64,000 nucleotides of DNA, taken from a virus (lineage: Duplodnaviria; Caudoviricetes). Below are positions 1 to 54,753 of this stretch, in pieces. Numbering within the stretch: the stretch's first letter is position 1; the number at the start of each line of letters is the position of its first letter. The stretch is from the IMG/VR virus record IMGVR_UViG_3300037249_001000, positions 1-64,000 of that record; one strand, 5' to 3'. The position numbers and the translations under genes were made by a program. The notes beneath the pieces are model-generated. The model ran no database searches and had not been told where the DNA came from. It saw only the letters and a program-made list of their open reading frames with translations.

Positions 1-208
1 GAAGAAACTGAAAATCCTGATAAAAAAGAAAAAAATTCACATGTAGAGTCATCAAAAGAAGAAACTGAAAATCCTGATAAAAAAGAAGAAGAAACTGAAA
101 ATCCTGATAAAAAAGAAAAAATTCACATGTAGAGTCATCAAAAGAAGAAACTGAAAATCCTGATAAAAAAGAAAAAAATTCACATGTAGAGTCATCAAAA
201 GAAGAAAC
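1..208 (+). repeat. Coding tandem repeat (57-bp unit EETENPDKKEKNSHVESSK, plus a shorter partial unit)
   Basis: gaagaaactgaaaatcctgataaaaaagaa occurs four times and tcacatgtagagtcatcaaaa three times. Confidence 0.95.
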
Positions 209-1304
209 GAAAAAATATAATGGTCATGCTCATGATGAAATTGCTCCGTTACAAGGTGAATATAAAGCTAAAATTTATGGTAACGTCCATGAAATATCAT
301 CACCATTTATAGGGAATGAACTAACATCAGAAGAAAAAGAAATTGCAAAAAAACTTTATGATAAATCTAAAAATAAAACACTTACATATGGAGATGTAGA
401 TCAAATAGAAAAGTTATATAAGAAATATAGAGATAACACATCATCTTCTTTTCCTTATTCAAAAAACTTATCAACTTTATTAACGGATCCTGATTTTACA
501 CAGCACTTAACACATGAAGAGAAAATAAAATTAGAAGAAATTGATAATAGAGCTAAAAATAAAACAACAATTAGATCAGATAATACATATGTAAGAAATT
601 TATTTAATACAACATATAATAAATTGAGTAGTGACGCTAAAAAACGACGTCGTGAAAAAAATAAATCTGATAAGAAAACTAAATCAACAAAAACCAGTAA
701 AAATGAAACAGATCAATCCAAAGATTCTCAAGTAGAATCTGATAATAGTAAAAAAACTCAAGATGATATTTCTAATAAGAAAAATAAATGTGCCGATTTT
801 AAAAATCAACCGTCTGATGTTAAATCATTAGTAAAAGACGCACATATATTAATGTCGACAGTTAAAGATTTTGTAAAAACATATTTTAAAATTAGAATAA
901 AAAGCGGTGGATATGATTTTTATCTATTAGATGAAAAACAAGGTGAAGAAATTCTTCGCCACGTAGGTCTCTATGAACAGGGTTCATTTATTGGTCGATT
1001 AGATGCTGGTAATAAAAAATATGAAGCCGCTATCAATGATGTAATAAATTATAGTGAATATGTACTTAAATTTAAAGATAAATATAGTAGTAAAGAATTT
1101 TATAAAGCTAAAGGACAAGAATCAAAATATGATGATGATGATTATGAAAGTGAAGATGAGGATGTTGAAGAAGTATACGAAGAGATAGAAGAAAAGTTAA
1201 AAAAAGTAAAAAAACAATTACCTGCACTTAAAAACGTGATGTTTGAATCGTCAACAGAAAACTTAATTAATGATATTTTATTTATTTTTGAAAATTTTTT
1301 CTAA
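1..1304 (+). CDS. 5'-truncated virion/internal-head-like protein; the true ORF extends upstream of 624 and off the window, with a probable 1-nt homopolymer deletion near 120
   Basis: The frame of ORF 624..1304 is open back to nt 120. Frame 1 from nt 1 encodes the same EETENPDKKEKNSHVESSK repeat, and copy 2 has 6 A where the other copies have 7. The C-terminus FES-STENLINDILFIFENFF matches the tag on neighbouring head proteins. Confidence 0.7.
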
Positions 1305-1320
1305 AAGGTGAATAAATATT

Positions 1321-1625
1321 ATGTATAGAAATATATTTTTATTTGAAAAAATGGGATAAATTTATGACATAAAGCATATAAAATACGTTCAGGATTAATA
1401 GATGAAGATATTTCACAGAAAAAAAACATGATAATGCTGTTCAATGAGTATCTAAACCTGTATTTAATAAAGATGGATATGTAAGTCATGATTATCATGT
1501 TGAAGAACTTGTAGATAAATGAGACCTTATGGATTTAAAAACGAACATTTAATAAAAAGTGGAGCGATAAAGCTAAGAAACAAAAGAAAGCAGTTAAAGA
1601 AGAACTTCGTAAAACCATTGAATAA
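1321..1625 (+). pseudogene. Degraded or frameshifted small gene remnant
   Basis: RBS aaggtga and ATG at 1321 (MYRNIFLFEK...), then coding-like sequence broken by stops and frame changes up to the terminator at 1630. Confidence 0.4.
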
Positions 1626-1629
1626 TTAT

Positions 1630-1667
1630 AAAAATATACTGATCTTTTTTAAGATCGGTATATTTTT
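1630..1667 (+). terminator. Intrinsic terminator
   Basis: aaaatatactgatctt/aagatcggtatatttt inverted repeat followed by a T run. Confidence 0.8.
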
Positions 1668-1731
1668 AAGTTAATTATAAGATAAATGTTTGACAATTAA
1701 TTAAATACTTATAAGAAAGGAGAAATATATT

Positions 1732-2463
1732 GTGGCTATTTCTGAATATAAAAGATATTTAAATGATACATGGAATATATCTGGAGTAGTAACTACTACA
1801 ACTGATTGTTGTAATATTATTACAAATAATATTGACTGTATTGATAGATATTTACATTTTGTAAGAGTATTTTTTTCATCAATTCAATCAGTTTCCGGTA
1901 TACTTGGTGAAGGTAATAATATAAAAATTTTATATGACAAAGTTTCTAAATTAAGTTATACAAAAAATATTCCTATTAATATTACTTTTTCACCTTTATC
2001 TTTTTCAACATATATTGAATATATTACAGGAATGAATCAGTTCGTAAATGATATTATAAGTGCAGTAACTTCAAATGATACTGATATGATAGAGTTATTT
2101 ACTAAACAGATTGAGACTGCAAAAGAGAATGATCAAAAATTTATTAATGATATCATTATCAAAACTTCTAAAGAAGTAGAAATTACTGAATCATTAGATA
2201 TTCTAAATCAATTAGTTGATTTTAAAGATAATATTAAAACATTATTGAGTATAATTTGTTCACATGAAAATATTAATAAAGAATCAATAGATTGTAAATT
2301 AGTTTATGATGCTATTAAATTACTTACAAATTCAATTAATAATTATTGCTATAGAGTATTAAATACGTTTTTAGATAATTATGATTTAATTTGTAAAGAA
2401 GTTGAAAAAATAACAACTTTACGTAAACAAGAATTTGAAGATAAGCCGTTTGCTCTTTTCTAA
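1732..2463 (+). CDS. Hypothetical protein (late/virion cluster)
   Basis: 243-aa ORF with RBS aaggag; late-promoter variant GACA-N6-TA at 1692-1703. Confidence 0.75.
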   Translation: MAISEYKRYLNDTWNISGVVTTTTDCCNIITNNIDCIDRYLHFVRVFFSSIQSVSGILGEGNNIKILYDKVSKLSYTKNIPINITFSPLSFSTYIEYITGMNQFVNDIISAVTSNDTDMIELFTKQIETAKENDQKFINDIIIKTSKEVEITESLDILNQLVDFKDNIKTLLSIICSHENINKESIDCKLVYDAIKLLTNSINNYCYRVLNTFLDNYDLICKEVEKITTLRKQEFEDKPFALF

Positions 2464-2478
2464 TTATTGATATATAAA

Positions 2479-2490
2479 AACATAATATTA
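2479..2490 (+). promoter_or_regulatory. Late (nvRNAP-type) promoter AACA-N6-TA
   Basis: AACA TAATAT TA, 22 nt upstream of ATG 2513. Confidence 0.75.
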
Positions 2491-2512
2491 AACCTGAAAA
2501 GAGGAATACAGT

Positions 2513-3220
2513 ATGAACATACTATCTATTGATTATATTGAAAATAATATTGATGATATTGATAAAATTTTTAACGTTATTAATGAACAATATGAATTCG
2601 ATATAATGAAAATAAATAATGACTATTATTTAGAAAATTCATTGTCCAATATAAATAATATTTTTTTATTTGAAAATGTTAAAACTGAAACTGATAATGG
2701 TTTTAAAAAATATATACAAGGATTTTTTCAAGCTATAATTAATTTTATTGATAATATCATAAATTCCATTAAAGTACTCTTTATTAGTAAAAAAAATATT
2801 GATATTGATGATTATCTTAAATCTCATGATGGAAAACTACAACTTGACAAAGATGTAAATAAGTTAAAAAAAAGTATAGATGAAGATATCTCTAATGGTA
2901 ATAAGTTATTACAACGAATTACATCAAAACTTGGTGTTACACATAAAGAAGTTGATGATTTTATTAATAATTCTAAGAAAAAAATTGCATTAATTGGACC
3001 TATTGTTGTTGGTGGAGTAGCATCACATTTTTCATATAAAAAATTTATGAATGATCTTAATGATAATAAACAATCATTACAAAAATCACGAAATATTTTA
3101 AACAATGGGTTAGATTCTGATTCTGAAAGTATGGTAAGAAAAATTTTAAACCATCTATCTAGTTTAACACATTTATATGGTGATGAAATTATGAAGATAA
3201 TTAAAATAATTCAAAAATAA
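2513..3220 (+). CDS. Internal head protein-like (phiKZ internal-protein type)
   Basis: Acidic N-terminus with YLE/LFE sites, then the amphipathic helix FKKYIQGFFQAIINFIDNII shared with paralogs. Confidence 0.6.
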   Translation: MNILSIDYIENNIDDIDKIFNVINEQYEFDIMKINNDYYLENSLSNINNIFLFENVKTETDNGFKKYIQGFFQAIINFIDNIINSIKVLFISKKNIDIDDYLKSHDGKLQLDKDVNKLKKSIDEDISNGNKLLQRITSKLGVTHKEVDDFINNSKKKIALIGPIVVGGVASHFSYKKFMNDLNDNKQSLQKSRNILNNGLDSDSESMVRKILNHLSSLTHLYGDEIMKIIKIIQK

Positions 3221-3241
3221 TTTAAAGGAGGAAACTTTAAA

Positions 3242-4678
3242 ATGTCTACAATAAATTCATATATGAGTGAAATAGAAAAAGAATTGTATTTATTTGATAT
3301 GGATTGTAAAATCGAATCAAATAAAATTTCTTTAATGATCGAAGCTGTCGATAATAAACTTGAAACTAATTATTTATTAGCAGAAAAAAAAGTAATGCTT
3401 GAGAACGGTTCTTATGAAGATCTAACATACTACTACACTGAAGCAAATGAGGAAGCTAAAGGTGATAGAGAGGGCGTTTTTACAAGAATAAAGAATTTCT
3501 TTATTAAAATAAAAAATGGCATTGTCAACTTCTTTAAAAAAATTTTTGGTAAAGAAGATATGGAAGGTGATGCTCCACAAGAATTTGAAAAAGCATTTAG
3601 TATACTTGATAGTGTTAGAGGTTTCTTTAATCAGCAAGTTTCATTATTCAAATCAGGTCAATATGGAGCATTAGTAGTTACTTCTGTTGCTGCAGGATTT
3701 TCTATACTTGGTGAGATAAAAAGTATCGAAAGTACCCTCGAATGGACTGTAAAATCAGCAAAAAAACTTAAACATTACACAAAAGATGCTGTTACAAAAT
3801 GGAAAAAGAAAATTCATGATGGAATGCTAAAAATGTGTAAAGATTTAGAGGATATTATTAATAAAGCCGCTGCTGATGGGAATGTTCCTGCTCAATGGTG
3901 TCAAAAACTTATGGATCTTCTAAATCAAGCTAAAAGTAGAGCTATCAGTGTTTGGACTAATTTTACAGCATGGTTGACACACAAAAAAACAGATGATGAT
4001 AATGATGAACAAAAGAAATCAGAAAGTGGAAATAAGGCTAAAGGATTATTAGGAGACGGTTCTGATAATAAACCACAAGATGATAAACTCGCAAATAAAC
4101 AATCCAATGATAGTCAATTAGCTAATAAACCACAAGATGATAAACTCGCAAATAAACAATCCAATGATAGTCAATTAGCTAATAAACCACAAGATGATAA
4201 AAGTGAATCATCATCTCCCAAAGCGGTTAAAGCATTACCTGCACCAAAAAAATTACCAAAACTAAATGAAGGCGATTATTCGAGACTCAAGGATTTAGCA
4301 CAAATTGAACAAACTATATATAAGGGTTGTGGACCGATTATGCCATTTATTCCACAACGATATTCTGGAGAATTTAAAAAATTAAATAATATTAAGGATG
4401 AACCGAATAGGTCAAAAGCATTTATTGCATGGATAGATAGTATAACATCACACGATCACGAGATTTCACAATATGCAAACGATTTAATGAAAGACAATCA
4501 TAGTAAAGATGATCTGGGTACTCTCGATGCATGGATGACTAAATGGTTCGTTTGGTTAGGAGAAGGAAAACGAACATTGGAAAATGCTAAAAAATCTGCA
4601 CAAGATTATGGTCAAGTGAAGAAAGAATCAACTGATGACTTGATTTATGACCTTATAGATATATTTAAAGAGTTTTAA
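3242..4678 (+). CDS. Internal head protein-like
   Basis: YYTE|A then VFTRIKNFFIKIKNGIVNFFKKIF; C-terminal KES-TDDLIYDLIDIFKEF. Confidence 0.65.
   Translation: MSTINSYMSEIEKELYLFDMDCKIESNKISLMIEAVDNKLETNYLLAEKKVMLENGSYEDLTYYYTEANEEAKGDREGVFTRIKNFFIKIKNGIVNFFKKIFGKEDMEGDAPQEFEKAFSILDSVRGFFNQQVSLFKSGQYGALVVTSVAAGFSILGEIKSIESTLEWTVKSAKKLKHYTKDAVTKWKKKIHDGMLKMCKDLEDIINKAAADGNVPAQWCQKLMDLLNQAKSRAISVWTNFTAWLTHKKTDDDNDEQKKSESGNKAKGLLGDGSDNKPQDDKLANKQSNDSQLANKPQDDKLANKQSNDSQLANKPQDDKSESSSPKAVKALPAPKKLPKLNEGDYSRLKDLAQIEQTIYKGCGPIMPFIPQRYSGEFKKLNNIKDEPNRSKAFIAWIDSITSHDHEISQYANDLMKDNHSKDDLGTLDAWMTKWFVWLGEGKRTLENAKKSAQDYGQVKKESTDDLIYDLIDIFKEF
4067..4201 (+). repeat. 57-bp coding tandem repeat x2.4 (NKPQDDKLANKQSNDSQLA)
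   Basis: Exact unit starting at 4067 and 4124, partial copy at 4181. Confidence 0.95.
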
Positions 4679-4697
4679 ATAATAATTATATTATTGA

Positions 4698-4709
4698 AAC
4701 ATTTTTTTA
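4698..4709 (+). promoter_or_regulatory. Late promoter AACA-N6-TA
   Basis: AACA TTTTTT TA upstream of RBS aggag and ATG 4743. Confidence 0.7.
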
Positions 4710-4742
4710 ATTATAAATAATATGTTTAAAAGGAGAATAGAT

Positions 4743-5948
4743 ATGGATTTTTTTGAAACATATATGAATGATCTCAATAAAGCAACCGCAGAATATGAGA
4801 TTATGAATGATAAAATTATGTTATTTGAATCGACTGCGTACAGCGATCTTATTATTAAACAAAAACAATCTCAACTTGAATATACTGCATATGGTTATGT
4901 AACTGAATCTGATGATGATAAAGCTAAATTTTCAGATAAAGTAAAAGCAGCAATTACAAAGATTGTTGAAAATGTAAAGGAGTTTCTTGAAAAATGCCGA
5001 GATAAAATCGTTGAATTGTTTGAAAAGATGAGAGAGTCTAATCTTATCAAAAAAGTTAACGAGTTACTTAAAAGAGATCCTAGTGCTGGAAAAATTAAAG
5101 TTGAGGTAGAGGATAATACTGAAAAAAGACGTTTTCTTAGAAAATCCAAAAGTGATGCAGAAAAAGATTTAGCTAGAATTAAATCTGGAACAATCAAAGA
5201 AGATGATTTGGATAATATAGAAGATAGAAAAAATAAAACTGCCATTAAACTTGCTGCTACAGCTGCTGTAGTAACAATGACAGTTGCTGGAATTCTTCTT
5301 GCAATAAATCAGTTTAAAAATGATAGTGAAGATACAACATCTAAAAAAGCAATGAAATGTTTACCTGCACCTTCTTCGTTGCCTAATTTACCTAGTCCTC
5401 AGGATGAACATGTAATGATTTCAGCTACAGGTGAAGTTGCTGATTATATTACCGCAGATGCTAGACTTTCACTTCAAGATGGTAGTAATTATGTTAAAGC
5501 ATTAAAGACCGGTTTAGCTGGTTATTTACCTACAGGTGATCAAAATACTAAAGTTAATGCTAGTAAAGCATTTAATAGTAAACGTGATGACCGTATGGAT
5601 GACCTTTTAAGACAAGAAATGAACAGACGTAAACCAGTTAATACCGGTAAGGCATTAAAGGGTGGATATAAGGAAATAAGTGCAACTGTACCGATTCAAA
5701 TGGGTTCAGGTAATCCTTTACCTGCAACAAATACTATTCGTGCTCTTAGTGAATCATATGATTCAGAAAACTTTGATCCAGATGATTACTTCACAGAGCT
5801 TTGTAATGATGTATTTGGTACCGATGAACCTGATTATGATAGTTCCGATGATTACTTCACAGAGCTTTGTAATGATGTATTTGGTACCGATGATGGTAAT
5901 GATTTTGACAAGATGTATTCAGAGTTATGTGACGATATTTTTTTTTAA
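4743..5948 (+). CDS. Internal head protein-like with triplicated acidic C-terminal helix
   Basis: LFE|S and VTE|S sites, amphipathic helix, C-terminal DDYFTELCNDVFG twice plus DKMYSELCDDIFF; start moved to the ATG after the RBS. Confidence 0.65.
   Translation: MDFFETYMNDLNKATAEYEIMNDKIMLFESTAYSDLIIKQKQSQLEYTAYGYVTESDDDKAKFSDKVKAAITKIVENVKEFLEKCRDKIVELFEKMRESNLIKKVNELLKRDPSAGKIKVEVEDNTEKRRFLRKSKSDAEKDLARIKSGTIKEDDLDNIEDRKNKTAIKLAATAAVVTMTVAGILLAINQFKNDSEDTTSKKAMKCLPAPSSLPNLPSPQDEHVMISATGEVADYITADARLSLQDGSNYVKALKTGLAGYLPTGDQNTKVNASKAFNSKRDDRMDDLLRQEMNRRKPVNTGKALKGGYKEISATVPIQMGSGNPLPATNTIRALSESYDSENFDPDDYFTELCNDVFGTDEPDYDSSDDYFTELCNDVFGTDDGNDFDKMYSELCDDIFF
5781..5893 (+). repeat. 47-bp direct repeat (period 66) encoding DDYFTELCNDVFGTD
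   Basis: Identical copies at 5781-5827 and 5847-5893; a degenerate third copy follows. Confidence 0.95.
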
Positions 5949-5962
5949 ATAATGACGCTAAT

Positions 5963-7102
5963 ATGTATTATACTGAAGGAACAAATATAGATGTTGGTAA
6001 AAAATATCGTGCAGCTGTTAGATCAGCTCAAGGTAGTATTAAACGTATTAAAAAATTAATTAAAGAAAAAAAATATGATAATGCATTAGATGAAACAGAT
6101 AATGCTATTAAAAATATTCAAATTGTTCAGAAAGAGATTAAAATTTTAATCTCTAATCCTACTGTTTTAGATACAGTTTGTGGATGGATTTATAGAGGTG
6201 TAACCCAGATTGGTAAAGGTCTTGTATTAACAGCAGTTTCTTTTGGTGTTTTAGGATATGTATATGCATTTGTTGCTTCATGGAAAAATCTTATTTTAGC
6301 CATTACTACAGCATATACTCAATTACAAGAAAATGATTTTAATCATTCATTTTTAAATCTATATGTTAATCATGTTAACCATGTATTAAATGAAATACTT
6401 AAAACATTAGAAAAAATGCGTGAAAATATCAAAGAACTCCAAAAAAAAGATAAACTTACAAATATAAAAGAATCTGAATATGATTATGACAATTTTGATG
6501 ATATCTATATCGAGGGTTTTACTAAAGATGTTAGTAAAACATATAGAGATTCTTTCAATTTAGCTAATAATAAAATTAAAGAAGCTAAAAAGTTTATGAA
6601 GAGTGGAGAGTATATTGAAGCCCGTGTAAGTATTAAACAAGCTAGGAAAGCAGTAACTAGTGCTCAAGCTGAAATAAATGAAATGTCTAAAAATACGAAT
6701 TTACCTGATCATATATTTGGTATGATATATGGTTTATTAGTTTCATTTACTAAAGCATTGGTTTTTTCTATACCAACTTTTGGTGCAAGTTTTGCCGTTG
6801 CTGGTATTAAAAATTTATATACTTCATGTAATACATATTACGAAAAGATTAAAAATAAAGAAAAATTAGATGGATCGCCTAACAATACTTATCTTAATCA
6901 CGTAAATCATGTATTAAATGAAGTTATTAGAACTCTTGATAAAATTGAAGCTGAAATTCATAAAAAAGAAAATGATTCATCTACAAATACAAAAGAGAAG
7001 AAAAAAATCTTTAATAAAAAAGATAAAAATATGAATGAATCGGTGGATACTAAGGATCTTTTAGCGTCGGATCTTTTAAGTGATATGGATGATTTATTCT
7101 AA
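5963..7102 (+). CDS. Virion protein made of two tandem paralogous domains, each with a hydrophobic segment
   Basis: YYTE|G...YVNHVNHVLNEILKTL and IYIE|G...YLNHVNHVLNEVIRTL; C-terminal NES..DLLSDMDDLF. Confidence 0.65.
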   Translation: MYYTEGTNIDVGKKYRAAVRSAQGSIKRIKKLIKEKKYDNALDETDNAIKNIQIVQKEIKILISNPTVLDTVCGWIYRGVTQIGKGLVLTAVSFGVLGYVYAFVASWKNLILAITTAYTQLQENDFNHSFLNLYVNHVNHVLNEILKTLEKMRENIKELQKKDKLTNIKESEYDYDNFDDIYIEGFTKDVSKTYRDSFNLANNKIKEAKKFMKSGEYIEARVSIKQARKAVTSAQAEINEMSKNTNLPDHIFGMIYGLLVSFTKALVFSIPTFGASFAVAGIKNLYTSCNTYYEKIKNKEKLDGSPNNTYLNHVNHVLNEVIRTLDKIEAEIHKKENDSSTNTKEKKKIFNKKDKNMNESVDTKDLLASDLLSDMDDLF

Positions 7103-7107
7103 ATATT

Positions 7108-7144
7108 AAAATGATGGATGGATTATTTCATCCATCATTTTTTT
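7108..7144 (+). terminator. Intrinsic terminator
   Basis: aaaatgatggatg/catccatcatttt. Confidence 0.8.
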
Positions 7145-7167
7145 AAAACTATAAGGAGGTATAATTT

Positions 7168-8244
7168 ATGGATGAAATTTTACCAATTGGATATTATATG
7201 TACAATCTTTCGATAATTGAAGAATATATGAAAGAATGGATTGATATAGATGAATATTCATTACTGTTTGAATCAGAATCAGATCCAGTAGTTAAAGCTC
7301 AATCTAAAAACGATGAAGTATCATCAAAATCATCTAATATAGTAGTGAAATTAATTCAAAACGCTATTAAAATGATTAATTCCTTAATTGAATCCATAAC
7401 CAATTTTTTTGCTGAATTAGGATTAAAAGGTGACGAAAAAGAAGCATTTAATAATTTTCGTGAGCAAATAAAAAATGACCCTAAATTAAAAAATGTGAAA
7501 GTAACTGTTAAAGATTTTAGAAAAATAAATCAAGAGTATGACGCTATTTTAAAAAAAAGCGAACAAGAATTAAGAAAAGCGAAAGCTGATGAAACATACG
7601 ATTTATCAGGTATTATAAGAGAACTCAATAACGTTATAGATAAAAAAGTAGAACCTGCATCTCTTATAGTTACTAGTGAAGTTGCGTTAAAAATGGCAGA
7701 GTCTGATCAAAATACTGCTAGAGCTTTAAAAGTTACATTAGAACATGATAAATCATTTTTAGAAGCATTAGAAAAAGAATTTGGTCATGGTGAAGCTAAA
7801 CGATTTAAAAAACGTATAGACAATGCTGCTAAAATGACAACACTAACTAAATTAATGATTACGCTACGTGGAACTAGATGTAAAAATATTGAATCATGTC
7901 TTAAAACTACAACCACTGAATTACGTAGGGGTGGATTTATTAATCCATTTAGTAGAATAGGAAGAATGATGTGGAAAAATAAAGAAACCAGAGAAATAAA
8001 TAAAACTATTACTAAGAATACTCCAAGTTATGTTGCTGGTACTGTTAAAGGTAAAGTGATGGCTGCGGTTGATTCACATGGTGAACAAAGTGGTAAAAGA
8101 TATAAAAATAGAACTGAACGAATGATTGATAGAGAAAAACGAAATATGAAAAATACTAAAAAGTTTTGGTCAAATGAATCAATGAGTATAACATCAGATA
8201 TACGTGATGAAATATTATCAGTATCAGAAGAATTTGATGATTAA
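7168..8244 (+). CDS. Internal head protein-like
   Basis: LLFE|SES, amphipathic helix, DPKLKNVKVTV (compare DPSAGKIKVEV in 4743); C-terminal NES..DIRDEILSVSEEFDD. Confidence 0.6.
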   Translation: MDEILPIGYYMYNLSIIEEYMKEWIDIDEYSLLFESESDPVVKAQSKNDEVSSKSSNIVVKLIQNAIKMINSLIESITNFFAELGLKGDEKEAFNNFREQIKNDPKLKNVKVTVKDFRKINQEYDAILKKSEQELRKAKADETYDLSGIIRELNNVIDKKVEPASLIVTSEVALKMAESDQNTARALKVTLEHDKSFLEALEKEFGHGEAKRFKKRIDNAAKMTTLTKLMITLRGTRCKNIESCLKTTTTELRRGGFINPFSRIGRMMWKNKETREINKTITKNTPSYVAGTVKGKVMAAVDSHGEQSGKRYKNRTERMIDREKRNMKNTKKFWSNESMSITSDIRDEILSVSEEFDD

Positions 8245-8249
8245 ATAAT

Positions 8250-8283
8250 AAGACATTATAAGTATATATACTTATAATGTCTT
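8250..8283. terminator. Perfect 34-bp palindrome (terminator-like)
   Basis: aagacattataagtata|tatacttataatgtctt. Confidence 0.75.
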
Positions 8284-8298
8284 GATTTTATTACTGAA

Positions 8299-8310
8299 AA
8301 CATAGTAATA
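8299..8310 (+). promoter_or_regulatory. Late promoter AACA-N6-TA
   Basis: AACA TAGTAA TA upstream of 8347. Confidence 0.75.
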
Positions 8311-8346
8311 AATCAATAAAATAACTATATCGAAAGGAGATTAATT

Positions 8347-9381
8347 ATGATACGAATGAATTATATAAATGATGAATATACATTTGAATCCGATGAAATA
8401 TTGAGACCGTATAATTCATATATAAAAAGATGTTTAAATGATTTACAACCAGTTTATGCAGAATATGCGATGATATATAATAAAGTAGACCTCGAATTTA
8501 CCGTAATGGAATCTGTTTCAGATGATATGATGATACTTCTTGAAGCAGCTGAAAAAAGTTTACTTCAAAAAATCGGTGAAAAAATTTTAGAACTTCGAGA
8601 TAAATTTATAGAATTTGCTGATAAAGTTATAGATAAAATTAAAACATTTACGTTTAATAATAAATCTAATGCTCAAAAGTTAGAAAAATTATTAAAAGAG
8701 CATCCTGAATTAAAAGATGAAACGTTAATGGCTGTTAAAGACGGTACATTAAATCTTAATAATATTAAATCATTTAAAGAATTAAATGAAAATTACTCCG
8801 AAATAATAAAATTAGCTAAAAAAGGTGAAATAGATCCTAAAACGTTAAGAGGAAAATGGGAAAAAGTTAAAGAAAAATTTGAAGACAATGAGGATAAAAT
8901 AATAAAAGCTACAAAAGTTGTCACGGGCGTTATTGGAGCTGCAGTTGCACTTAAAACATTTTCTGTAAATTGTAGAGAAGCTGAAAAGCAAAATAATGAT
9001 CTTAAAGCTGAAGGAAGACGAACTGCACAGATGGCATATGATTGGTTAAACCATGCATCAAACTCACATACTAGAACTGATAATAGGACAAATCAAGAGA
9101 CTATTGTCACTAATCATAGATTTAATAAAAATGGTAACGTAGATAATCAATATTATGAATCAATAATAAATGGACAACTTTATATACAAGGTAAATTACA
9201 ACAAGCTATGGGTCAAAATTTAAATACTATCGAACGAATGAAATTGGCAATTGCTCGTTTTCTTGATAATCATGTTGTATCTGATGAAACGAAAAATAGA
9301 TATCATACAAACATGCGTATGAATATTACTGGTAGCTCCAATGTCAATCGTACTGTAAGACCAGTTAATAGAAATAGATAA
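8347..9381 (+). CDS. Internal head protein-like
   Basis: TFE|S, VME|S and LLE|A sites, then LLQKIGEKILELRDKFIEFADKVIDKI. Confidence 0.6.
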   Translation: MIRMNYINDEYTFESDEILRPYNSYIKRCLNDLQPVYAEYAMIYNKVDLEFTVMESVSDDMMILLEAAEKSLLQKIGEKILELRDKFIEFADKVIDKIKTFTFNNKSNAQKLEKLLKEHPELKDETLMAVKDGTLNLNNIKSFKELNENYSEIIKLAKKGEIDPKTLRGKWEKVKEKFEDNEDKIIKATKVVTGVIGAAVALKTFSVNCREAEKQNNDLKAEGRRTAQMAYDWLNHASNSHTRTDNRTNQETIVTNHRFNKNGNVDNQYYESIINGQLYIQGKLQQAMGQNLNTIERMKLAIARFLDNHVVSDETKNRYHTNMRMNITGSSNVNRTVRPVNRNR

Positions 9382-9396
9382 AGGAAGTGAATTTAT

Positions 9397-12162
9397 ATGA
9401 TAACAATGAATAATAAAGAAAATTTTCTTATCAGTAATATGAATTTTATTAATAATTACGATAGAGAAAATTTTATATCTGTTTCTAATAATGCGTTAAA
9501 TAAAGAAAATAAACTTCCAATAATAGATATTTCTCATTTTGATGAAAATTTTGATTTTTTAATTAAAACTCTTGAAAATATAGATATTAAATATTCTAAA
9601 GATTTAATTGAATATTTTCATAATGTTACCAATATTGATAGACGAAAACGAAGAATGATATCCACACTAAATTTTAATAATAATATTATCATTAAACCAA
9701 ATTATTTGTTGGAAGCTGCTAATAATATAAGATTAGTACTTGATAAAATAATATCAGGTGAAATAAGCACTAATGATATATATGGTGAATACATAAATAA
9801 TGATTCTGAATCTTCAATTCTTAAACAGCGAGTTATTAGTGGTATAAATAATTATGAGACACCAGAAACATTATTTATGAAAAAATACACAGATATTGAT
9901 AAATGTGACATTTTAGTTCCGGTTGACGGTGATTGTATTAAAAACGAAATTATTCCATTTATTGAAAAATTTAATGATACAAAAAATAATATTAAAACCA
10001 CTATTATCAACTCATCAAAGATAATTCATGATACATTTATTATTATTAATGAGTGTATCTCAACTATAAATAACAATTCAAGTAGGCTAGAGAATAAGAT
10101 ATTTGGATTTATTTTAAATTATTTATATAATCATATTCGTAATATTATTGAAACATCATCAATTGTTTTATATTTATATATTTCTAAATGTTATTTATTT
10201 GAAAAAATTACTAAAAGTATTATAGATACATCAAATACATTACAAGATGATTATTCTGATTGTAGGGATTTAGTTGAATCTGGTATTTTTGATCATAGAA
10301 ATATTTCCGATTCTTTATCTAAAAAAATTTCTAATAAATTATTAAAAGGTGATAATAATTTATTTGAAGAAATGGTTGATGATATCATAAATTATCACAA
10401 TAAATATATGACATTTCAAATTTATGATAATGATAATATAACATTCGAGTCCGTTATTAATATTTATGATAATATTAATTTTGGTATTGATACTATTGAA
10501 ATTCATGTTGATGATCCGTCTTTAATAATTAATAAATTAATAGAAGAATCTGGATTTAACACGTCATTAAATGAACAATATGGTTATATTGTTGAAATGA
10601 TTGACAATGTTAATGATTATTATGATATCGAATCAAGAGACACGTATGATAGTTTAATTGGAGAAATTGTTAATTATACTGAAAACACACAAAATATTGC
10701 AACGATGTCTAATGATATTATGACAAAAATATCAAACATTAATGATTCTATTAATAATATGCCTGATAATGAAAGTAAAAATGATCTTAAAACATTGATG
10801 GAGAGCGTTGAAAATCAATTTATTGATTTACATCAAAATATTAGTACTAATATATATAATAGATTAAGATATCTTGCACAAAAAGCAGATAAATCAATAA
10901 ATATATTTAATGAATCAGAATATAGACCCGAGGTTATAATTGGTGATAATCATGATGATGACCATAGAGAATGTTTCTTAGAATCATATATTAATAATTT
11001 ATCAAAAAATAATGATATATTAATGGAGTCATTGTTAAAGGGATATTATTCTGAAAGAGAATATTTAGAAAAAGGCATTAGTATAATTTTTGAAGATGGA
11101 GAAAATAATAACTCTAATTCGTCATCATCTTCATCAACCCAACCGTCAACAAATACAAATACATCAGCAAAACCGTCAGTTAATACAAATACTACGGGTA
11201 CAACAGTAAACGATCAAAATACAAGTAATGAACAAAACTTCGAAAAAGTTAAAACTAAAATTAAAAATCTCATAAAAAAAATAATTGATTCTTTTAAAAA
11301 TTTTATGGGAAAAAATAGTCAAAAAAATTTACAATGGTTAAAAGCAAATAAAGAAAAATTAATTAACCGAAGTTATTCGAATGTATCTGTTAATGTATTA
11401 CCATACCATGTTGAAATGGGTGTAGATAATATTTTAAATCATTATAATACAATGAGAACAAATGTTAATAGTGTTGTCAGAAATATTAAGAATATTACAA
11501 GTGCAAAAGATATGCGTAATAAATTATTTACATTTGGTGTTACATTTGATGAAAGTAATGATGAAAAAGATATATTAAATACATCAGCTCGTTTAACTGA
11601 TTTCTTTAAAGTTGGAAATAAACCATTAAATACAGTTACGTATTCAAATAAAGATGTTAAAACATTAGTAGTTGATACAATGATTCCATATTGTGAACGT
11701 TACTATGGTTCATTGGTTGATGAATTAAATAGAAAAGGTGATGAATTATTAAATGATACTCAAACAGCACAAGTTAATGAGTATGCTATTGTAACAGAAG
11801 ATGAAAATAATAATACTCAGCAATCATCCACTTCTGTACAAACCACGTCAAATAATAATAATCAATTGGCGGTACGAACACAAAATAATAACCAATTAGC
11901 GACGGCAAATCAAAATAATAATCATTCATCTACAACAAATCAGTCTCAATCAAATGATAAAGCTGCTGATTATAGTAAACAATACGAATGGCTTGAAAAA
12001 TTTATTGTAAGTTTTGTTGGTTCAGTTTGCAATGCGGCTAGAGCAAGAAACGATGATTATTTAAAAATTTTAGCTGACTTAGTACCCAAAGATAATAATA
12101 CTAACAATAATACACAAACTCAACAAGATAACAAAACGAACAACAATAATCAACAATCATAA
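9397..12162 (+). CDS. Large virion/internal head protein-like
   Basis: 921 aa with many xxE|S sites; IFE|D followed by an S/T/N linker and an amphipathic helix. Confidence 0.55.
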   Translation: MITMNNKENFLISNMNFINNYDRENFISVSNNALNKENKLPIIDISHFDENFDFLIKTLENIDIKYSKDLIEYFHNVTNIDRRKRRMISTLNFNNNIIIKPNYLLEAANNIRLVLDKIISGEISTNDIYGEYINNDSESSILKQRVISGINNYETPETLFMKKYTDIDKCDILVPVDGDCIKNEIIPFIEKFNDTKNNIKTTIINSSKIIHDTFIIINECISTINNNSSRLENKIFGFILNYLYNHIRNIIETSSIVLYLYISKCYLFEKITKSIIDTSNTLQDDYSDCRDLVESGIFDHRNISDSLSKKISNKLLKGDNNLFEEMVDDIINYHNKYMTFQIYDNDNITFESVINIYDNINFGIDTIEIHVDDPSLIINKLIEESGFNTSLNEQYGYIVEMIDNVNDYYDIESRDTYDSLIGEIVNYTENTQNIATMSNDIMTKISNINDSINNMPDNESKNDLKTLMESVENQFIDLHQNISTNIYNRLRYLAQKADKSINIFNESEYRPEVIIGDNHDDDHRECFLESYINNLSKNNDILMESLLKGYYSEREYLEKGISIIFEDGENNNSNSSSSSSTQPSTNTNTSAKPSVNTNTTGTTVNDQNTSNEQNFEKVKTKIKNLIKKIIDSFKNFMGKNSQKNLQWLKANKEKLINRSYSNVSVNVLPYHVEMGVDNILNHYNTMRTNVNSVVRNIKNITSAKDMRNKLFTFGVTFDESNDEKDILNTSARLTDFFKVGNKPLNTVTYSNKDVKTLVVDTMIPYCERYYGSLVDELNRKGDELLNDTQTAQVNEYAIVTEDENNNTQQSSTSVQTTSNNNNQLAVRTQNNNQLATANQNNNHSSTTNQSQSNDKAADYSKQYEWLEKFIVSFVGSVCNAARARNDDYLKILADLVPKDNNTNNNTQTQQDNKTNNNNQQS

Positions 12163-12165
12163 AAA

Positions 12166-12205
12166 AAAAAATACTGTGATAGATGAACTCTATCACAGTA
12201 TTTTT
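12166..12205. terminator. Bidirectional intrinsic terminator
   Basis: aaaaatactgtgataga/tctatcacagtattttt between convergent genes. Confidence 0.85.
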
Positions 12206-13466
12206 ATTTTAATAATTTTAATTCAACATCGGTTGATAATGCAAAATCACTACCGTCTTTAATAAAAACTAAATTTGTTGATGATAAAATATAATCACCT
12301 CTATAATTTCCACTTATAGTTGAATCCTCGAATAACAATTTAATTTTTTTATTAGGTTTAAGTGCATCAATATCATAATTACTTAATAATGTATTTACTA
12401 CTATTTTTTTAGAATTAACTATAGAATTATACATATTGACATAATATTCATTTTCAGTTTTATTCTCAATAACAGTAGTATTACCATAACTATTTTTATT
12501 AATATCTATACTTCCTGAATAACTATCAACTGAAGATGCTTGTACTGAATTAATTACATCAAATGAAATGGTTTCATCTCTTATACTAACATTATTAGTT
12601 CCTAATATATAATAAGAACTTAAATCACTTGCTCTTCGTATACTACATAATTCATTCGCAGCGATTCTATTATTTTTCTTAGGTATCAATATATTAGTTT
12701 CAGTCATTTCATTATATTGATAAGCTTTGCAACCACCCGAATATGGTAGTATATAAAATATATCATCAATAAAATCATTATAAGCAATAAAACCATTTTT
12801 ATATATACCATAATAATTATTTATCCACATTAATGCTTCTTTAGCTTTTAATGGTGGGATAAGTAATTCAGGAATAATTTTATTATTATCAGCAGGTGCC
12901 ATTAAAATATTTTTAAGTCCTGATTGATTTATAATATATTGAATAGCACCTGTAGATGTCGCATTGGTTAAGACATTATTAATATTTGTATTCATTTTAT
13001 TAATAATATCAGATTTATATAAATAAAACTCAATTGGATTATTTGATTTAACTAGATCATTGGAGATATCGGTATCAAAATTTTTTAAATTACGTTTTGA
13101 TTCCTCTCTCAGTGGTTTATCTGAATCATAATCTTCTTCGTCTAAAATTAAATCAAAAGTATCATTAATTACATCACGCATTAAGCTTTTTTTCTTTTTT
13201 GCGAGTTCATTATAATATTTTTGTATTCTTAATTTAATCTTTACTCTTGATTTATTTTGAAGTATCTTATAATAAATAGTAGATGCTGTAATTATTTCTA
13301 TTCTAAAAATAGGAAATAAATTATTTTCATAATCATGAAATATTCCTATACTACTGATTCTATCAGGAATAATTTCAATCGGTTTCGCATTTACATTTAA
13401 TATTTGAAACTCAGTCACTCTATAACGCCATTTTTGATATTTATCATCATCATATAAAAATGCCAT
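12204..13466 (-). CDS. Putative baseplate hub/tail structural protein
   Basis: beta-rich; C-terminal pattern GDYILSSTNLVF...DVEL resembles hub proteins; motif impression only. Confidence 0.4.
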   Translation of the reverse strand: MAFLYDDDKYQKWRYRVTEFQILNVNAKPIEIIPDRISSIGIFHDYENNLFPIFRIEIITASTIYYKILQNKSRVKIKLRIQKYYNELAKKKKSLMRDVINDTFDLILDEEDYDSDKPLREESKRNLKNFDTDISNDLVKSNNPIEFYLYKSDIINKMNTNINNVLTNATSTGAIQYIINQSGLKNILMAPADNNKIIPELLIPPLKAKEALMWINNYYGIYKNGFIAYNDFIDDIFYILPYSGGCKAYQYNEMTETNILIPKKNNRIAANELCSIRRASDLSSYYILGTNNVSIRDETISFDVINSVQASSVDSYSGSIDINKNSYGNTTVIENKTENEYYVNMYNSIVNSKKIVVNTLLSNYDIDALKPNKKIKLLFEDSTISGNYRGDYILSSTNLVFIKDGSDFALSTDVELKLLK

Positions 13467-44463: not shown

Positions 44464-45159
44464 TTAGTCAAATGGAAGAAAATCTTCCATACTATTTACA
44501 TTGGTTGTATTTGCTTGAAAATTTTGTTGTGGTGTTGAATTTTGATAATTTTGATTTGTTCTCTGATATGCTGCTTTAACCATATCATTATATTTAACTG
44601 AATGTGCAATTACAGGACTTAAATCTTTTATAGCGTATACCTTATTCATGAAATTAATAAGATCTGTTTCAACTACTACTTCTTCTGCTGAACCTGTACT
44701 TGACACATAGTTGGTGAGGTATTGCCTTTTATTGAATGTATGTTTAATAACATTACTTGCAACACCAGTTTCATTAATACCTATTGCAATTGATAAGTAT
44801 GCTATACCATCTTCATATCCTACTGTTAAAATTTTTCTTGCATCCCCGTTATCAGCACTAATAACAATAGAAACAGATCCATTGTCTTTTACACCATTAA
44901 TTGCAGGAAGTACTTCTTTTTCAAATCCAGTAATAAGAGCAATAGCATTTTCGGGTGTAATAGATGTACTTATAATTTGCGATCTATCTTCAGCATATTG
45001 TCTAAGACCGTTTGCATCTTTACCAACACACGGTTTCAAGTTAATTGACAGTTGCTTATTCCATGCACCAGCATTAAGCTGAGCAGTCTCTGAATACGAT
45101 GTATATAAACTCGTATTCAAATTAATCTCCTGACGTGAATTGTTTGATCTAAAAAACAT
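44464..45159 (-). CDS. Putative single-stranded DNA-binding protein
   Basis: beta-rich core, Q/N-rich linker and SSB-like acidic tip MEDFLPFD; early motif at 45203-45210; RBS aaggagg. Confidence 0.55.
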   Translation of the reverse strand: MFFRSNNSRQEINLNTSLYTSYSETAQLNAGAWNKQLSINLKPCVGKDANGLRQYAEDRSQIISTSITPENAIALITGFEKEVLPAINGVKDNGSVSIVISADNGDARKILTVGYEDGIAYLSIAIGINETGVASNVIKHTFNKRQYLTNYVSSTGSAEEVVVETDLINFMNKVYAIKDLSPVIAHSVKYNDMVKAAYQRTNQNYQNSTPQQNFQANTTNVNSMEDFLPFD

Positions 45160-45226
45160 ATTTTTGTCCTCCTTATTTACAAAGAATATTATTATCAAAT
45201 TTATAATATATAAATAATTTTATCTT

Positions 45227-53694: not shown

Positions 53695-53838
53695 ATTATA
53701 TTTCCCTCCATTATTTTTCAATGAATTTAAATTGATGTTTTTATGTATATAGATTTGAATTTTAAAAATCATATATTTTTGTTACAATATATTAAATGAA
53801 TTTCTAAAATTAATATAATTTGAAAGGTGGAAATAATT

Positions 53839-54753
53839 ATGTCTTTTTCAGATATTTTAAGAAGACCATTGCCTTCTCAATCACTTTATACAGAGTCTGA
53901 GGATGAATCAGTATTTGATGATCCTAATGCAATAAAAAAGCAATTAGATAAGGAAGTATCCGAAGATGTGGATGATTATGGTTCATCATATGGTGATGAT
54001 TTTGACTCATATTCATCAGATGATTCTGATAATTTAAGTTATGATGATGAATGTGGAGATAGTGATTACAGTAATAACTATGAATATGATGAGGGCGGAG
54101 ACTGTTCAAACTGCGAAGAAGATGCAGACTTAGATGAGGATGACATTGATGATATTGCAGATGAACTTGAGGATATTGATCTTGAAGATCTCAGTGATGA
54201 GGAATTAAGTCAGATGGAAGACGAACTCGAAAATCAAGAGATTGATAATATTGTCGGTGAACCTGAGCAAGTTGATCTTGATCCCGAGGAAGAAAAAGTC
54301 GCAGATGACCTCATGGCTGTAAGTGCTACTACAGAACTTATTAATAATGAGCTTAATGCTGAAGAAAGAGCTCAATTCTATGAATCTGCAAGAGATACAC
54401 AAATTGCTGTATATGAGGGTTTTCTTCTTGAGTCAGATATTCAAGATGGTAGAGAGATTGATGATGACTTCTTTACTGAGTCTAAGATGTGGAGAAAAAC
54501 AATGGTTCGTTTCTCCAAGGATGATAGAAAGAAACAGCTCTATTCTGTTGCAGTAAATGTATCAGCACGTGCTCACAATGACCCTCTTTATTTCAAGTAT
54601 CAGAAGATTCTTAAAGCGAGAAAACTTTATAAACGCAAGCTTGAGAAGAAGTACCATGCTGAAGCTATTAAACGTATGAAAGTATACTTCAATAGATTGA
54701 AGAATTCTAAATCTTCAGTTCTTGCTAATATTGGAAAGAAATTCAGTAAATAA
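53839..54753 (+). CDS. Late protein with long acidic propeptide-like region and basic C-terminal domain
   Basis: YTE|S, FYE|S, LLE|S and FTE|S sites; about 90-aa K/R-rich tail; promoter variant TACA-N6-TA at 53783-53794. Confidence 0.7.
   Translation: MSFSDILRRPLPSQSLYTESEDESVFDDPNAIKKQLDKEVSEDVDDYGSSYGDDFDSYSSDDSDNLSYDDECGDSDYSNNYEYDEGGDCSNCEEDADLDEDDIDDIADELEDIDLEDLSDEELSQMEDELENQEIDNIVGEPEQVDLDPEEEKVADDLMAVSATTELINNELNAEERAQFYESARDTQIAVYEGFLLESDIQDGREIDDDFFTESKMWRKTMVRFSKDDRKKQLYSVAVNVSARAHNDPLYFKYQKILKARKLYKRKLEKKYHAEAIKRMKVYFNRLKNSKSSVLANIGKKFSK

Follow-up and report, generated by a model that had tools for sequence, protein, structure and literature searches.

To our knowledge, the rules by which giant phages choose the dozens of proteins packed into their heads are largely unknown. 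In the models T4, phiKZ and SPN3US the signals carried by cargo proteins are N-terminal propeptides, and use of the C-terminus is thought to be limited to the protease. The stretch of DNA analysed here (the window) is the first 64 kb of the 139,539-bp IMG/VR record IMGVR_UViG_3300037249_001000, which has a completeness rating of 58%; the G+C content of the window is ~25%. At its start lies a cluster of genes, A to I, and the question raised by this locus is why five of the encoded proteins (A, D, E, F and G) end in short acidic helices placed directly behind a Glu-Ser dipeptide, given that a conserved, repeatable, junction-bounded C-terminal tail would indicate a second loading route. The answer proposed here, with a probability of roughly 0.4, is that the tails serve internal head proteins as docking peptides at the C-terminus and are clipped off at Glu-Ser during maturation, where cleavage, packaging and binding partner are predicted from the sequence.

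Five acidic tails at the ends of clustered genes

The initial annotation of the window described such tails at the ends of five genes, and all five were verified (A ending at 1304, D at 4678, E at 5948, F at 7102 and G at 8244). The carrier genes are listed below, with an arrow marking the position between Glu and Ser at each junction.

111..1304, + strand: gene A, 5′-truncated by the contig start; acidic tail at 1248-1301 after M-F-E↓S.
3242..4678, + strand: gene D, member of the paralogue superfamily described below; tail at 4628-4675 after K-K-E↓S.
4743..5948, + strand: gene E, with one hydrophobic transmembrane (TM)-like helix; tail region at 5754-5945 after L-S-E↓S, with three helix copies.
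5963..7102, + strand: gene F, with an internal duplication and two TM-like hairpin regions, outside the superfamily; tail at 7040-7099 after M-N-E↓S.
7168..8244, + strand: gene G, from a large family with 277 representatives; tail at 8179-8241 after S-N-E↓S.

Each tail consists of an x-E↓S junction, an acidic amphipathic helix and a near-terminal Phe, and Ser follows the Glu at every one of the five junctions. Counted after the Glu, the tails are 18 (A), 16 (D), 64 (E), 20 (F) and 21 (G) residues long. The tripling of the tail in one gene, also described in the initial annotation, is found in E, where the helix cores start at 5784, 5850 and 5910. A crude test for these features, with criteria set post hoc (Phe among the final three residues, and a net charge of −3 or below over the final 20), is passed by seven of the 146 open reading frames (ORFs) in the 139.5-kb record; five of the seven are the cluster proteins, encoded within seven consecutive genes, a clustering with a corrected p of ~1e-4 under these post hoc criteria. 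In four of the five tails E-S lies 16-21 residues from the end, for which the likewise post hoc chance expectation is ~7e-6. One of the two further Phe-ended ORFs passing the test encodes a phosphoesterase and the other is without a family match, and an acidic C-terminus is also present in the record on a C-terminal fragment of a UvsX-like recombinase.

Conservation and modular distribution of the tails

Some homologues of the cluster proteins are encoded on contigs of 118-242 kb. In the E family there are 17 homologues, with 22-98% identity. In an alignment of 16 homologues (19-45% identical) the tail columns D354, Y356, E359, L360, C361 and D363 are invariant, while the centre of the protein is hypervariable. 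Identity to the window protein averages 0.73 over the last 14 residues vs 0.28 elsewhere, and only 3 of 388 windows of equal length are more conserved than the tail. Members of this family carry two to four tail copies, the most distant ones closing with a variant helix, and one to four copies are found when all relatives are counted. Thirteen F-family sequences show no variation in the N-E-S junction or the tail core, and in this family the basic stretch that precedes them, the junction and the tail are conserved jointly as one unit. The F relatives P0170-P0183 have first halves that are swapped among three unrelated N-terminal types, with a constant second half and tail, and P0012, an E-F fusion, keeps the F-type tail.

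A syntenic 12-kb JGI contig (L036) has the gene order phrog_23804 virion structural protein, tail-less paralogue, A, B, C, D, E, F, G, and retains all five tails. The numbers of identical residues among the last 18 are 14 (A), 8 (D), 13 (E), 14 (F) and 11 (G), for whole-protein identities of 27% (D), 33% (E), 47% (F) and 63% (G); the D homologue, the most divergent of these, keeps an acidic tail with a terminal F.

The G family, with 277 representatives at 50% clustering, provides a contrasting distribution. Among the C-termini compared, those of the 150 representatives listed out of 277, nearly all finish with a run rich in Lys behind a motif resembling F-x-x-G, and acidic tails are found in winG/P0018, P0059, P0066 and P0077 only, each directly after E-S and, in G itself, behind the family's usual C-terminal F-W/F-x-x-G motif. 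P0019, the nearest relative of winG/P0018, is without a tail. On a tree of the N-terminal 260 residues, the tail label needs four changes, of which at least two are forced by well-supported branches. The Lys-rich ending, observed in most of the G relatives P0020-P0167 after a terminal aromatic-x-x-Gly motif (often D-F-L/I-x-G), may itself be a second, basic kind of C-terminal signal. Fused forms with two or three G-type modules in tandem also occur (P0044, P0066, P0135 and P0142) which, together with the E-F fusion in P0012, suggests that these genes act as polyprotein-like units.

The tails are thus under selection, as the conservation within the E and F families, the retention in L036 and the distribution in the G family together establish. 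The G-family distribution and the varying copy number further mark the tail as a module appended to the proteins, subject to gain, loss and multiplication. This bears out the modular character that had been proposed for it: the tail is a patchy addition at no fewer than two separate places in the G-family tree, and a constant element on exchanged N-terminal halves in the F family. It is very probably a functional, modular interaction peptide.

A physico-chemical class of tails on partly related carriers

The initial annotation had also treated the five tails as a single shared tag, to be confirmed by a profile scan of all C-termini, and this does not hold at the level of sequence. A hidden Markov model (HMM) built from the E-family tails alone gives 23-25 bits on the window's own E copies, 0.6 bits on A and lower scores on D, F and G, vs up to 8.5 bits on shuffled proteomes, so that a profile of the E-type tail fails to detect the other four, and a word search with the E tail region alone recovers E-family members only. 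A joint HMM of all five tails ranks all five at the top, a circular result, and a regular expression derived from the five tails is circular in the same way and is unused as evidence. The tails are therefore a physico-chemical class and not one homologous tag, having in common the junction, an acidic character, hydrophobic residues repeated at helical spacing and an aromatic residue close to the end.

The carriers had been described as otherwise divergent, which is correct for F and needs to be qualified for D, E and G. D, E and G are remote paralogues, linked by hhalign values of 97.4% (E family vs G family) and 94.5% (132003-type paralogues vs E) and by a match of D to an HMM of the 132003-type paralogues (3.7e-24), with further superfamily matches within the genome at 4e-7 to 5e-4. 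The superfamily includes C, D, E, G and H in the cluster and the genes at 90331, 124221, 132003, 135281 and 136372 of the record; among its at least 11 members in the record, the tail is present on D, E and G only. F is not detected as a member by profile comparison over the N-terminal helical module, and A resembles the superfamily by eye alone. The N-terminal module described for most carriers, with hydrophobic-x-Glu before Ser or Ala and an amphipathic helix, is present in C, D, E, G, H and other paralogues, and is lacking in F. At this site at least 90% of 76 G-family members keep E35 of G (L-F-E↓S), and all E-family sequences have L-F ahead of the Glu.

These relationships bear on the possibility that the tails have no separate function, and merely reflect the ancestry of tandem paralogues together with the Asp/Glu/Ile/Leu/Phe-rich composition of a 25% G+C genome. 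Such ancestry would fit the remote paralogy of D, E and G, yet eight or more other paralogues are without a tail while F, a non-paralogue, has one. The failure of the tails to align by profile would also fit, yet within families conservation is far higher in the tail than in the rest of the protein, and in the G family the tail has been gained or lost. The criteria of the crude test were set after the tails had been seen, although the features that it captures recur in just two other ORFs of 146. An origin without function is on this evidence highly improbable.

Flanking charge and predicted structure

The tails themselves carry a net charge of −3 to −6, and the charge of the residues ahead of them bears on a second alternative, in which the acidic helix is a charge-masking propeptide that pairs with an upstream basic helix or shields hydrophobic segments, keeping the precursor soluble and inert. 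Glu-Ser cleavage in the head would then expose a DNA- or membrane-binding surface, making the tail a removable inhibitor and not an address. The 25 residues ahead of the tail are net basic in D (+2), F (+3) and G (+4), as this alternative predicts, but the segment upstream of the A tail has a net charge of 0, and in E the 25 residues ahead of the last 20 have a net charge of −8 and are themselves earlier tail copies. The joint conservation of basic stretch, junction and tail in the F family and the Lys-rich C-terminus typical of the G family fit masking, as does a gene at 53827-54753 in which a long acidic region is fused to a basic domain matching a virion structural family. The repetition of the helix, with no basic stretch before it in E and two to four copies in its family, is better suited to a multivalent external partner.

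Structure predictions divide in the same manner. The AlphaFold2 (AF2) model of G contains a confident helical bundle at residues 1-155 (pLDDT around 90), with the presumed propeptide included, followed towards the C-terminus by a basic helix (309-335), a linker that includes the junction (330-342, pLDDT <50) and the acidic tail helix (343-357), an arrangement compatible with pairing of the two helices. A predicted complex between the body of G (residues 1-328) and the tail of the same protein (329-358) has a score of 0.00, which counts neither way. In the AF2 model of E, by contrast, the three tail helices are isolated, of low confidence and not packed against the protein, as expected for peptides that would fold on binding. 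A Foldseek search of the G model against BFVD and the Protein Data Bank (PDB) returned nothing below E 0.1. Masking is on balance an unlikely account of the tails; if right, it would show how basic or membrane-active internal proteins stay inert until maturation.

Head-protein evidence and the prohead protease

The record encodes phiKZ/AR9-type split RNA polymerase subunits, a GroEL-like chaperonin, pieces of a family B DNA polymerase and an amidase endolysin, and contains a portal gene related to phiKZ gp129 (101142-103598 of the record). A prohead protease gene is located at 125046-125927 of the record, with a match to Pfam Peptidase_S80 (the phiKZ gp175 family) of 35.2 bits against a cut-off of 23.4, and also to phrog_3014.

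Several features of gene neighbourhood point to a role of the carriers in the head. The virion structural protein phrog_23804 is encoded directly upstream of the cluster in L036, one paralogue adjoins the protease gene, and three other paralogues sit among a phrog_23545 virion structural protein gene and an RNA-polymerase-beta-like gene. Late-type AACA-N6-TA motifs, with a background of 0.56 per kb, are present upstream of C (at −34), E and H. The E-S dipeptide is enriched in the candidates, 9 of the 14 being in the top 22 of 110 proteins (p ~1e-4).

Similarity to the phiKZ internal head proteins (phiKZ_IP, PF12699) is sub-threshold. With a gathering score of 27 bits, PF12699 gives no hit for A-I or for 76 G-family members, Pfam searches of which yield noise only; two paralogues in the record match it below the threshold, at 132003-132905 (21.6 bits, E 6.6e-6) and 136372-137241 (16.9 bits, 1.7e-4), where the E values are genome-scale. 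For comparison, phiKZ itself gives 8 hits above the cut-off. A G-family profile matches phiKZ gp95 with an E of 0.002 per genome, PF12699 is found in 10% of the members of one Atlas neighbour cluster, and the weak links to PF12699 are consistent in position. On the basis of gene neighbourhood and this sub-threshold similarity, the carriers are probably internal head proteins.

The junction is a plausible target of the encoded protease, since the related SPN3US enzyme cuts after Glu, with Ser preferred at P1′ (PMC10052503). An x-E↓S lies 16-64 residues from the C-terminus in all five carriers, in a genome with an S80 protease, which is the pattern of a protease-removable C-terminal propeptide, and E-S precedes the tail in every tail-bearing F and G relative and in most E relatives. 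Cleavage of the tail at Glu-Ser is given even odds. In the S80 protease itself, an I-M-E↓S site lies 46 residues before the end, behind which the terminus is acidic and Phe-rich; as in SPN3US gp245, this end may be a C-terminal propeptide that the enzyme removes from itself. A general derivation of the cargo tails as copies of the protease C-terminus was considered and dropped: the tail HMM misses the phage's own protease, and the C-terminus of phiKZ gp175 is neither acidic nor aromatic.

Proposed mechanism and points against it

In the proposed mechanism, the cluster would encode late internal head proteins, of the inner-body or ejection type, of an uncultured AR9/phiKZ-like jumbo phage. Members of the superfamily would have an N-terminal segment ending at the conserved hydrophobic-x-Glu↓Ser/Ala site. 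Five of the cluster proteins, A and F among them, would have acquired a C-terminal module, in which a presumably flexible linker with the Glu-Ser junction leads into short acidic amphipathic helices, one to three in number, with an aromatic end. The helix would dock the precursor onto a shared and probably repetitive prohead receptor (a capsid-protein propeptide, core or scaffold), with extra helix copies conferring avidity. The Peptidase_S80 protease would then cut after the Glu, the tail would depart, and the mature protein would remain in the head. The prediction is that mature C-termini end at the Glu residues named above. Prohead docking as the role of the tail is held as a tentative assignment, at somewhat less than even odds.

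A number of findings weigh against this proposal. A major capsid protein was not found in the 139.5-kb record, using phiKZ gp120 and AR9 g117 as queries and PHROG scans of the large ORFs, and no cluster protein reaches any Pfam or PHROG virion family. In hhalign comparisons with phiKZ gp92-97, gp162 and gp163 the G family reaches a probability of 6.7% and the 132003 type one of 4.8%, in both cases on the helix past the cleavage region, and the phiKZ internal head proteins and protease have no such acidic tail. In SPN3US, 13 of the 14 mapped cuts remove N-terminal propeptides and there is no cargo with a C-terminal one (PMC10052503), so that a tag at the C-terminus of cargo would break with the pattern known so far. 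That one receptor serves all five tails is an assumption, since homology among them is not detectable. The P3 and P2 residues at the C-terminal junctions are often polar (K-K-E, S-N-E), vs a hydrophobic P3 at the N-terminal sites. Finally, the TM-like helices in E and F make a membrane location in the infected cell possible.

The last two points would also fit a third alternative, in which the tail is a retained short linear motif that recruits proteins to a hub (a membrane assembly site, the chaperonin or the portal) or acts after ejection, with E-S being merely a linker and helix N-cap. Acidic tails with an aromatic end are a widespread hub-binding device, as in the tips of single-stranded DNA-binding protein (SSB) and T7 gp2.5 and gp4, and in the clamp-binding tails of the T4 type. 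The GroEL-like chaperonin encoded in the genome would be a candidate hub, and the relatives of F, which itself has TM-like helices, have a sub-threshold match to a membrane-protein family (DUF2207_C). However, a helix cap does not account for the Glu, which is kept before Ser in every tail-bearing F and G relative, and the carriers are not replication proteins, belonging instead to a family with conserved N-terminal Glu sites and structural-gene neighbourhoods. Retention of an uncut motif is accordingly given low odds.

The broader form of the docking proposal is that, in a clade of uncultured jumbo phages, the C-terminal acidic peptide serves as a general prohead address that is tunable by copy number, removable by protease and transferable between unrelated backbones. 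This generalization is rather doubtful. If true, it would be the mirror image of the N-terminal capsid targeting sequence of T4 and could be used as an encapsidation tag, where a short tail could leave the N-terminus of the cargo free.

Other genes of the cluster and record

The cluster contains the following further features.

1321..1359, + strand: decayed paralogue start, 12 codons followed by a stop; resembles the starts of genes 132003, 135281 and 136372.
1732..2463, + strand: gene B, no acidic tail; last residue F, net charge 0; 98% identical in L036.
2513..3220, + strand: gene C, superfamily member without a tail; its L036 homologue matches the E-family HMM at 1.4e-5.
8347..9381, + strand: gene H, also in the superfamily; C-terminus basic, tail lacking; matches the E-family HMM at 3.7e-5.
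9397..12162, + strand: gene I, 921 residues, with low-complexity linkers rich in Asn, Gln, Ser and Thr; 11 E-S dipeptides, 5.1 expected.

Tandem repeats of 57/86 nt encoding Lys/Glu-rich units occupy positions 1-213, where the reading frame shifts at the contig start, and the frame of gene A is open from nt 111 with no start codon ahead of 624, so that the gene would be truncated or mis-assembled there; the full-length A homologue in L036 has 662 residues and keeps the tail. The decayed start between A and B (on to ~1731) is best read as the remnant of a lost or recombined paralogue, since the DNA of the window at 1283-1367 is nearly identical to 131992-132049, 135267-135311 and 136336-136418 of the record, at the starts of the 132003, 135281 and 136372 genes. 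Between L036 and the window, the region 111-7102 is a mosaic, in which B and the C-terminal part of A are ~98% identical and D, E and F are 27-47% identical, which points to recent recombination inside the cluster.

The start of gene E is most likely 4743, where there is a ribosome-binding site and agreement with the N-termini of the homologues. Gene H has T-F-E↓S and V-M-E↓S sites close to its N-terminus. In gene I, which has no match in family searches, most of the E-S dipeptides have a hydrophobic P3, and its product could be a heavily processed head protein, core or scaffold-like.

Elsewhere in the window, the protein encoded at 44464-45198 (− strand) has an Asn/Gln-rich linker and an acidic tip, D-F-L-P-F-D, which recalls the C-terminal tip of SSB; it has no PHROG match. 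No match was found among GenBank phages by megablast of positions 1-12200 or by tblastn of the RNA polymerase-like protein, G and a typical G-family member, and searches of viral contigs with the 12204-13466 protein, F and the E-family alignment as queries gave no relatives.

Comparison with known systems

The closest precedent within the same protease family is SPN3US gp245, a protease with a 64-residue C-terminal propeptide proposed to target the enzyme into the prohead (PMC7411985), where loss of the last 26 residues abolishes incorporation (PMC7411985, PMC10052503). The likeness lies in a C-terminal segment bounded by a Glu cut motif, in a genome encoding a protease of this family. The SPN3US type of propeptide is known on the protease alone, is 64 residues long and is self-cleaved, whereas the carriers described here are five proteins that are not enzymes, with tails of 16-64 residues that are present once to three times and are presumed to be cleaved.

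The T4 capsid targeting sequence (CTS), as summarized in PMC7411985, is an N-terminal peptide that loads internal, later ejected proteins (IPI-III and Alt) into the prohead core and is clipped after Glu by gp21. The same account describes it as portable to foreign proteins, citing Mullaney and Black 1996. It is ~10-20 residues long and present in a single copy, unlike the C-terminal acidic amphipathic helices reported here, which are sometimes repeated. Being C-terminal, the tails fall outside the T4 type of CTS, although their function may be analogous.

Among the phiKZ_IP proteins (PF12699: phiKZ gp93-95, 162 and 163; SPN3US gp53 and gp54), phiKZ gp93 and gp162 are gp175 substrates that cover the inside of the capsid (PMC5694885, PMC11297242). 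This family resembles the cluster in being a multi-paralogue helical family with N-terminal Glu sites, which are cut to remove propeptides in phiKZ_IP members and are candidates here. It differs in that the phiKZ members are without an acidic C-terminal tail, and the cluster proteins fall below the Pfam threshold.

Beyond these phages, the herpesvirus scaffold has a C-terminal amphipathic tail that binds the major capsid protein and is severed at the maturational (M) site, Ala↓Ser, by an assemblin-fold protease to which phage prohead proteases are related, and the HK97 protease has a C-terminal capsid-targeting tail that is not cut at the tail itself. Both differ from the tails described here in being located on the scaffold or the protease, and in not being multi-copy. 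The cargo-loading peptides of encapsulins and the encapsulation peptides of microcompartments are short, terminal and amphipathic, are attached to unrelated cargo by a flexible linker, and are portable and poorly conserved in sequence. The last of these properties is shared by the tails in the window; no homology is implied, as there is no removal by protease and the shells are not phage proheads. By analogy, the nearest functional counterparts of the tails would be the C-terminal propeptide of the protease itself, the herpesvirus scaffold tail and the HK97 protease tail. Protease-bounded C-terminal tails on cargo proteins would be new as a variant, while the principle behind them is known.

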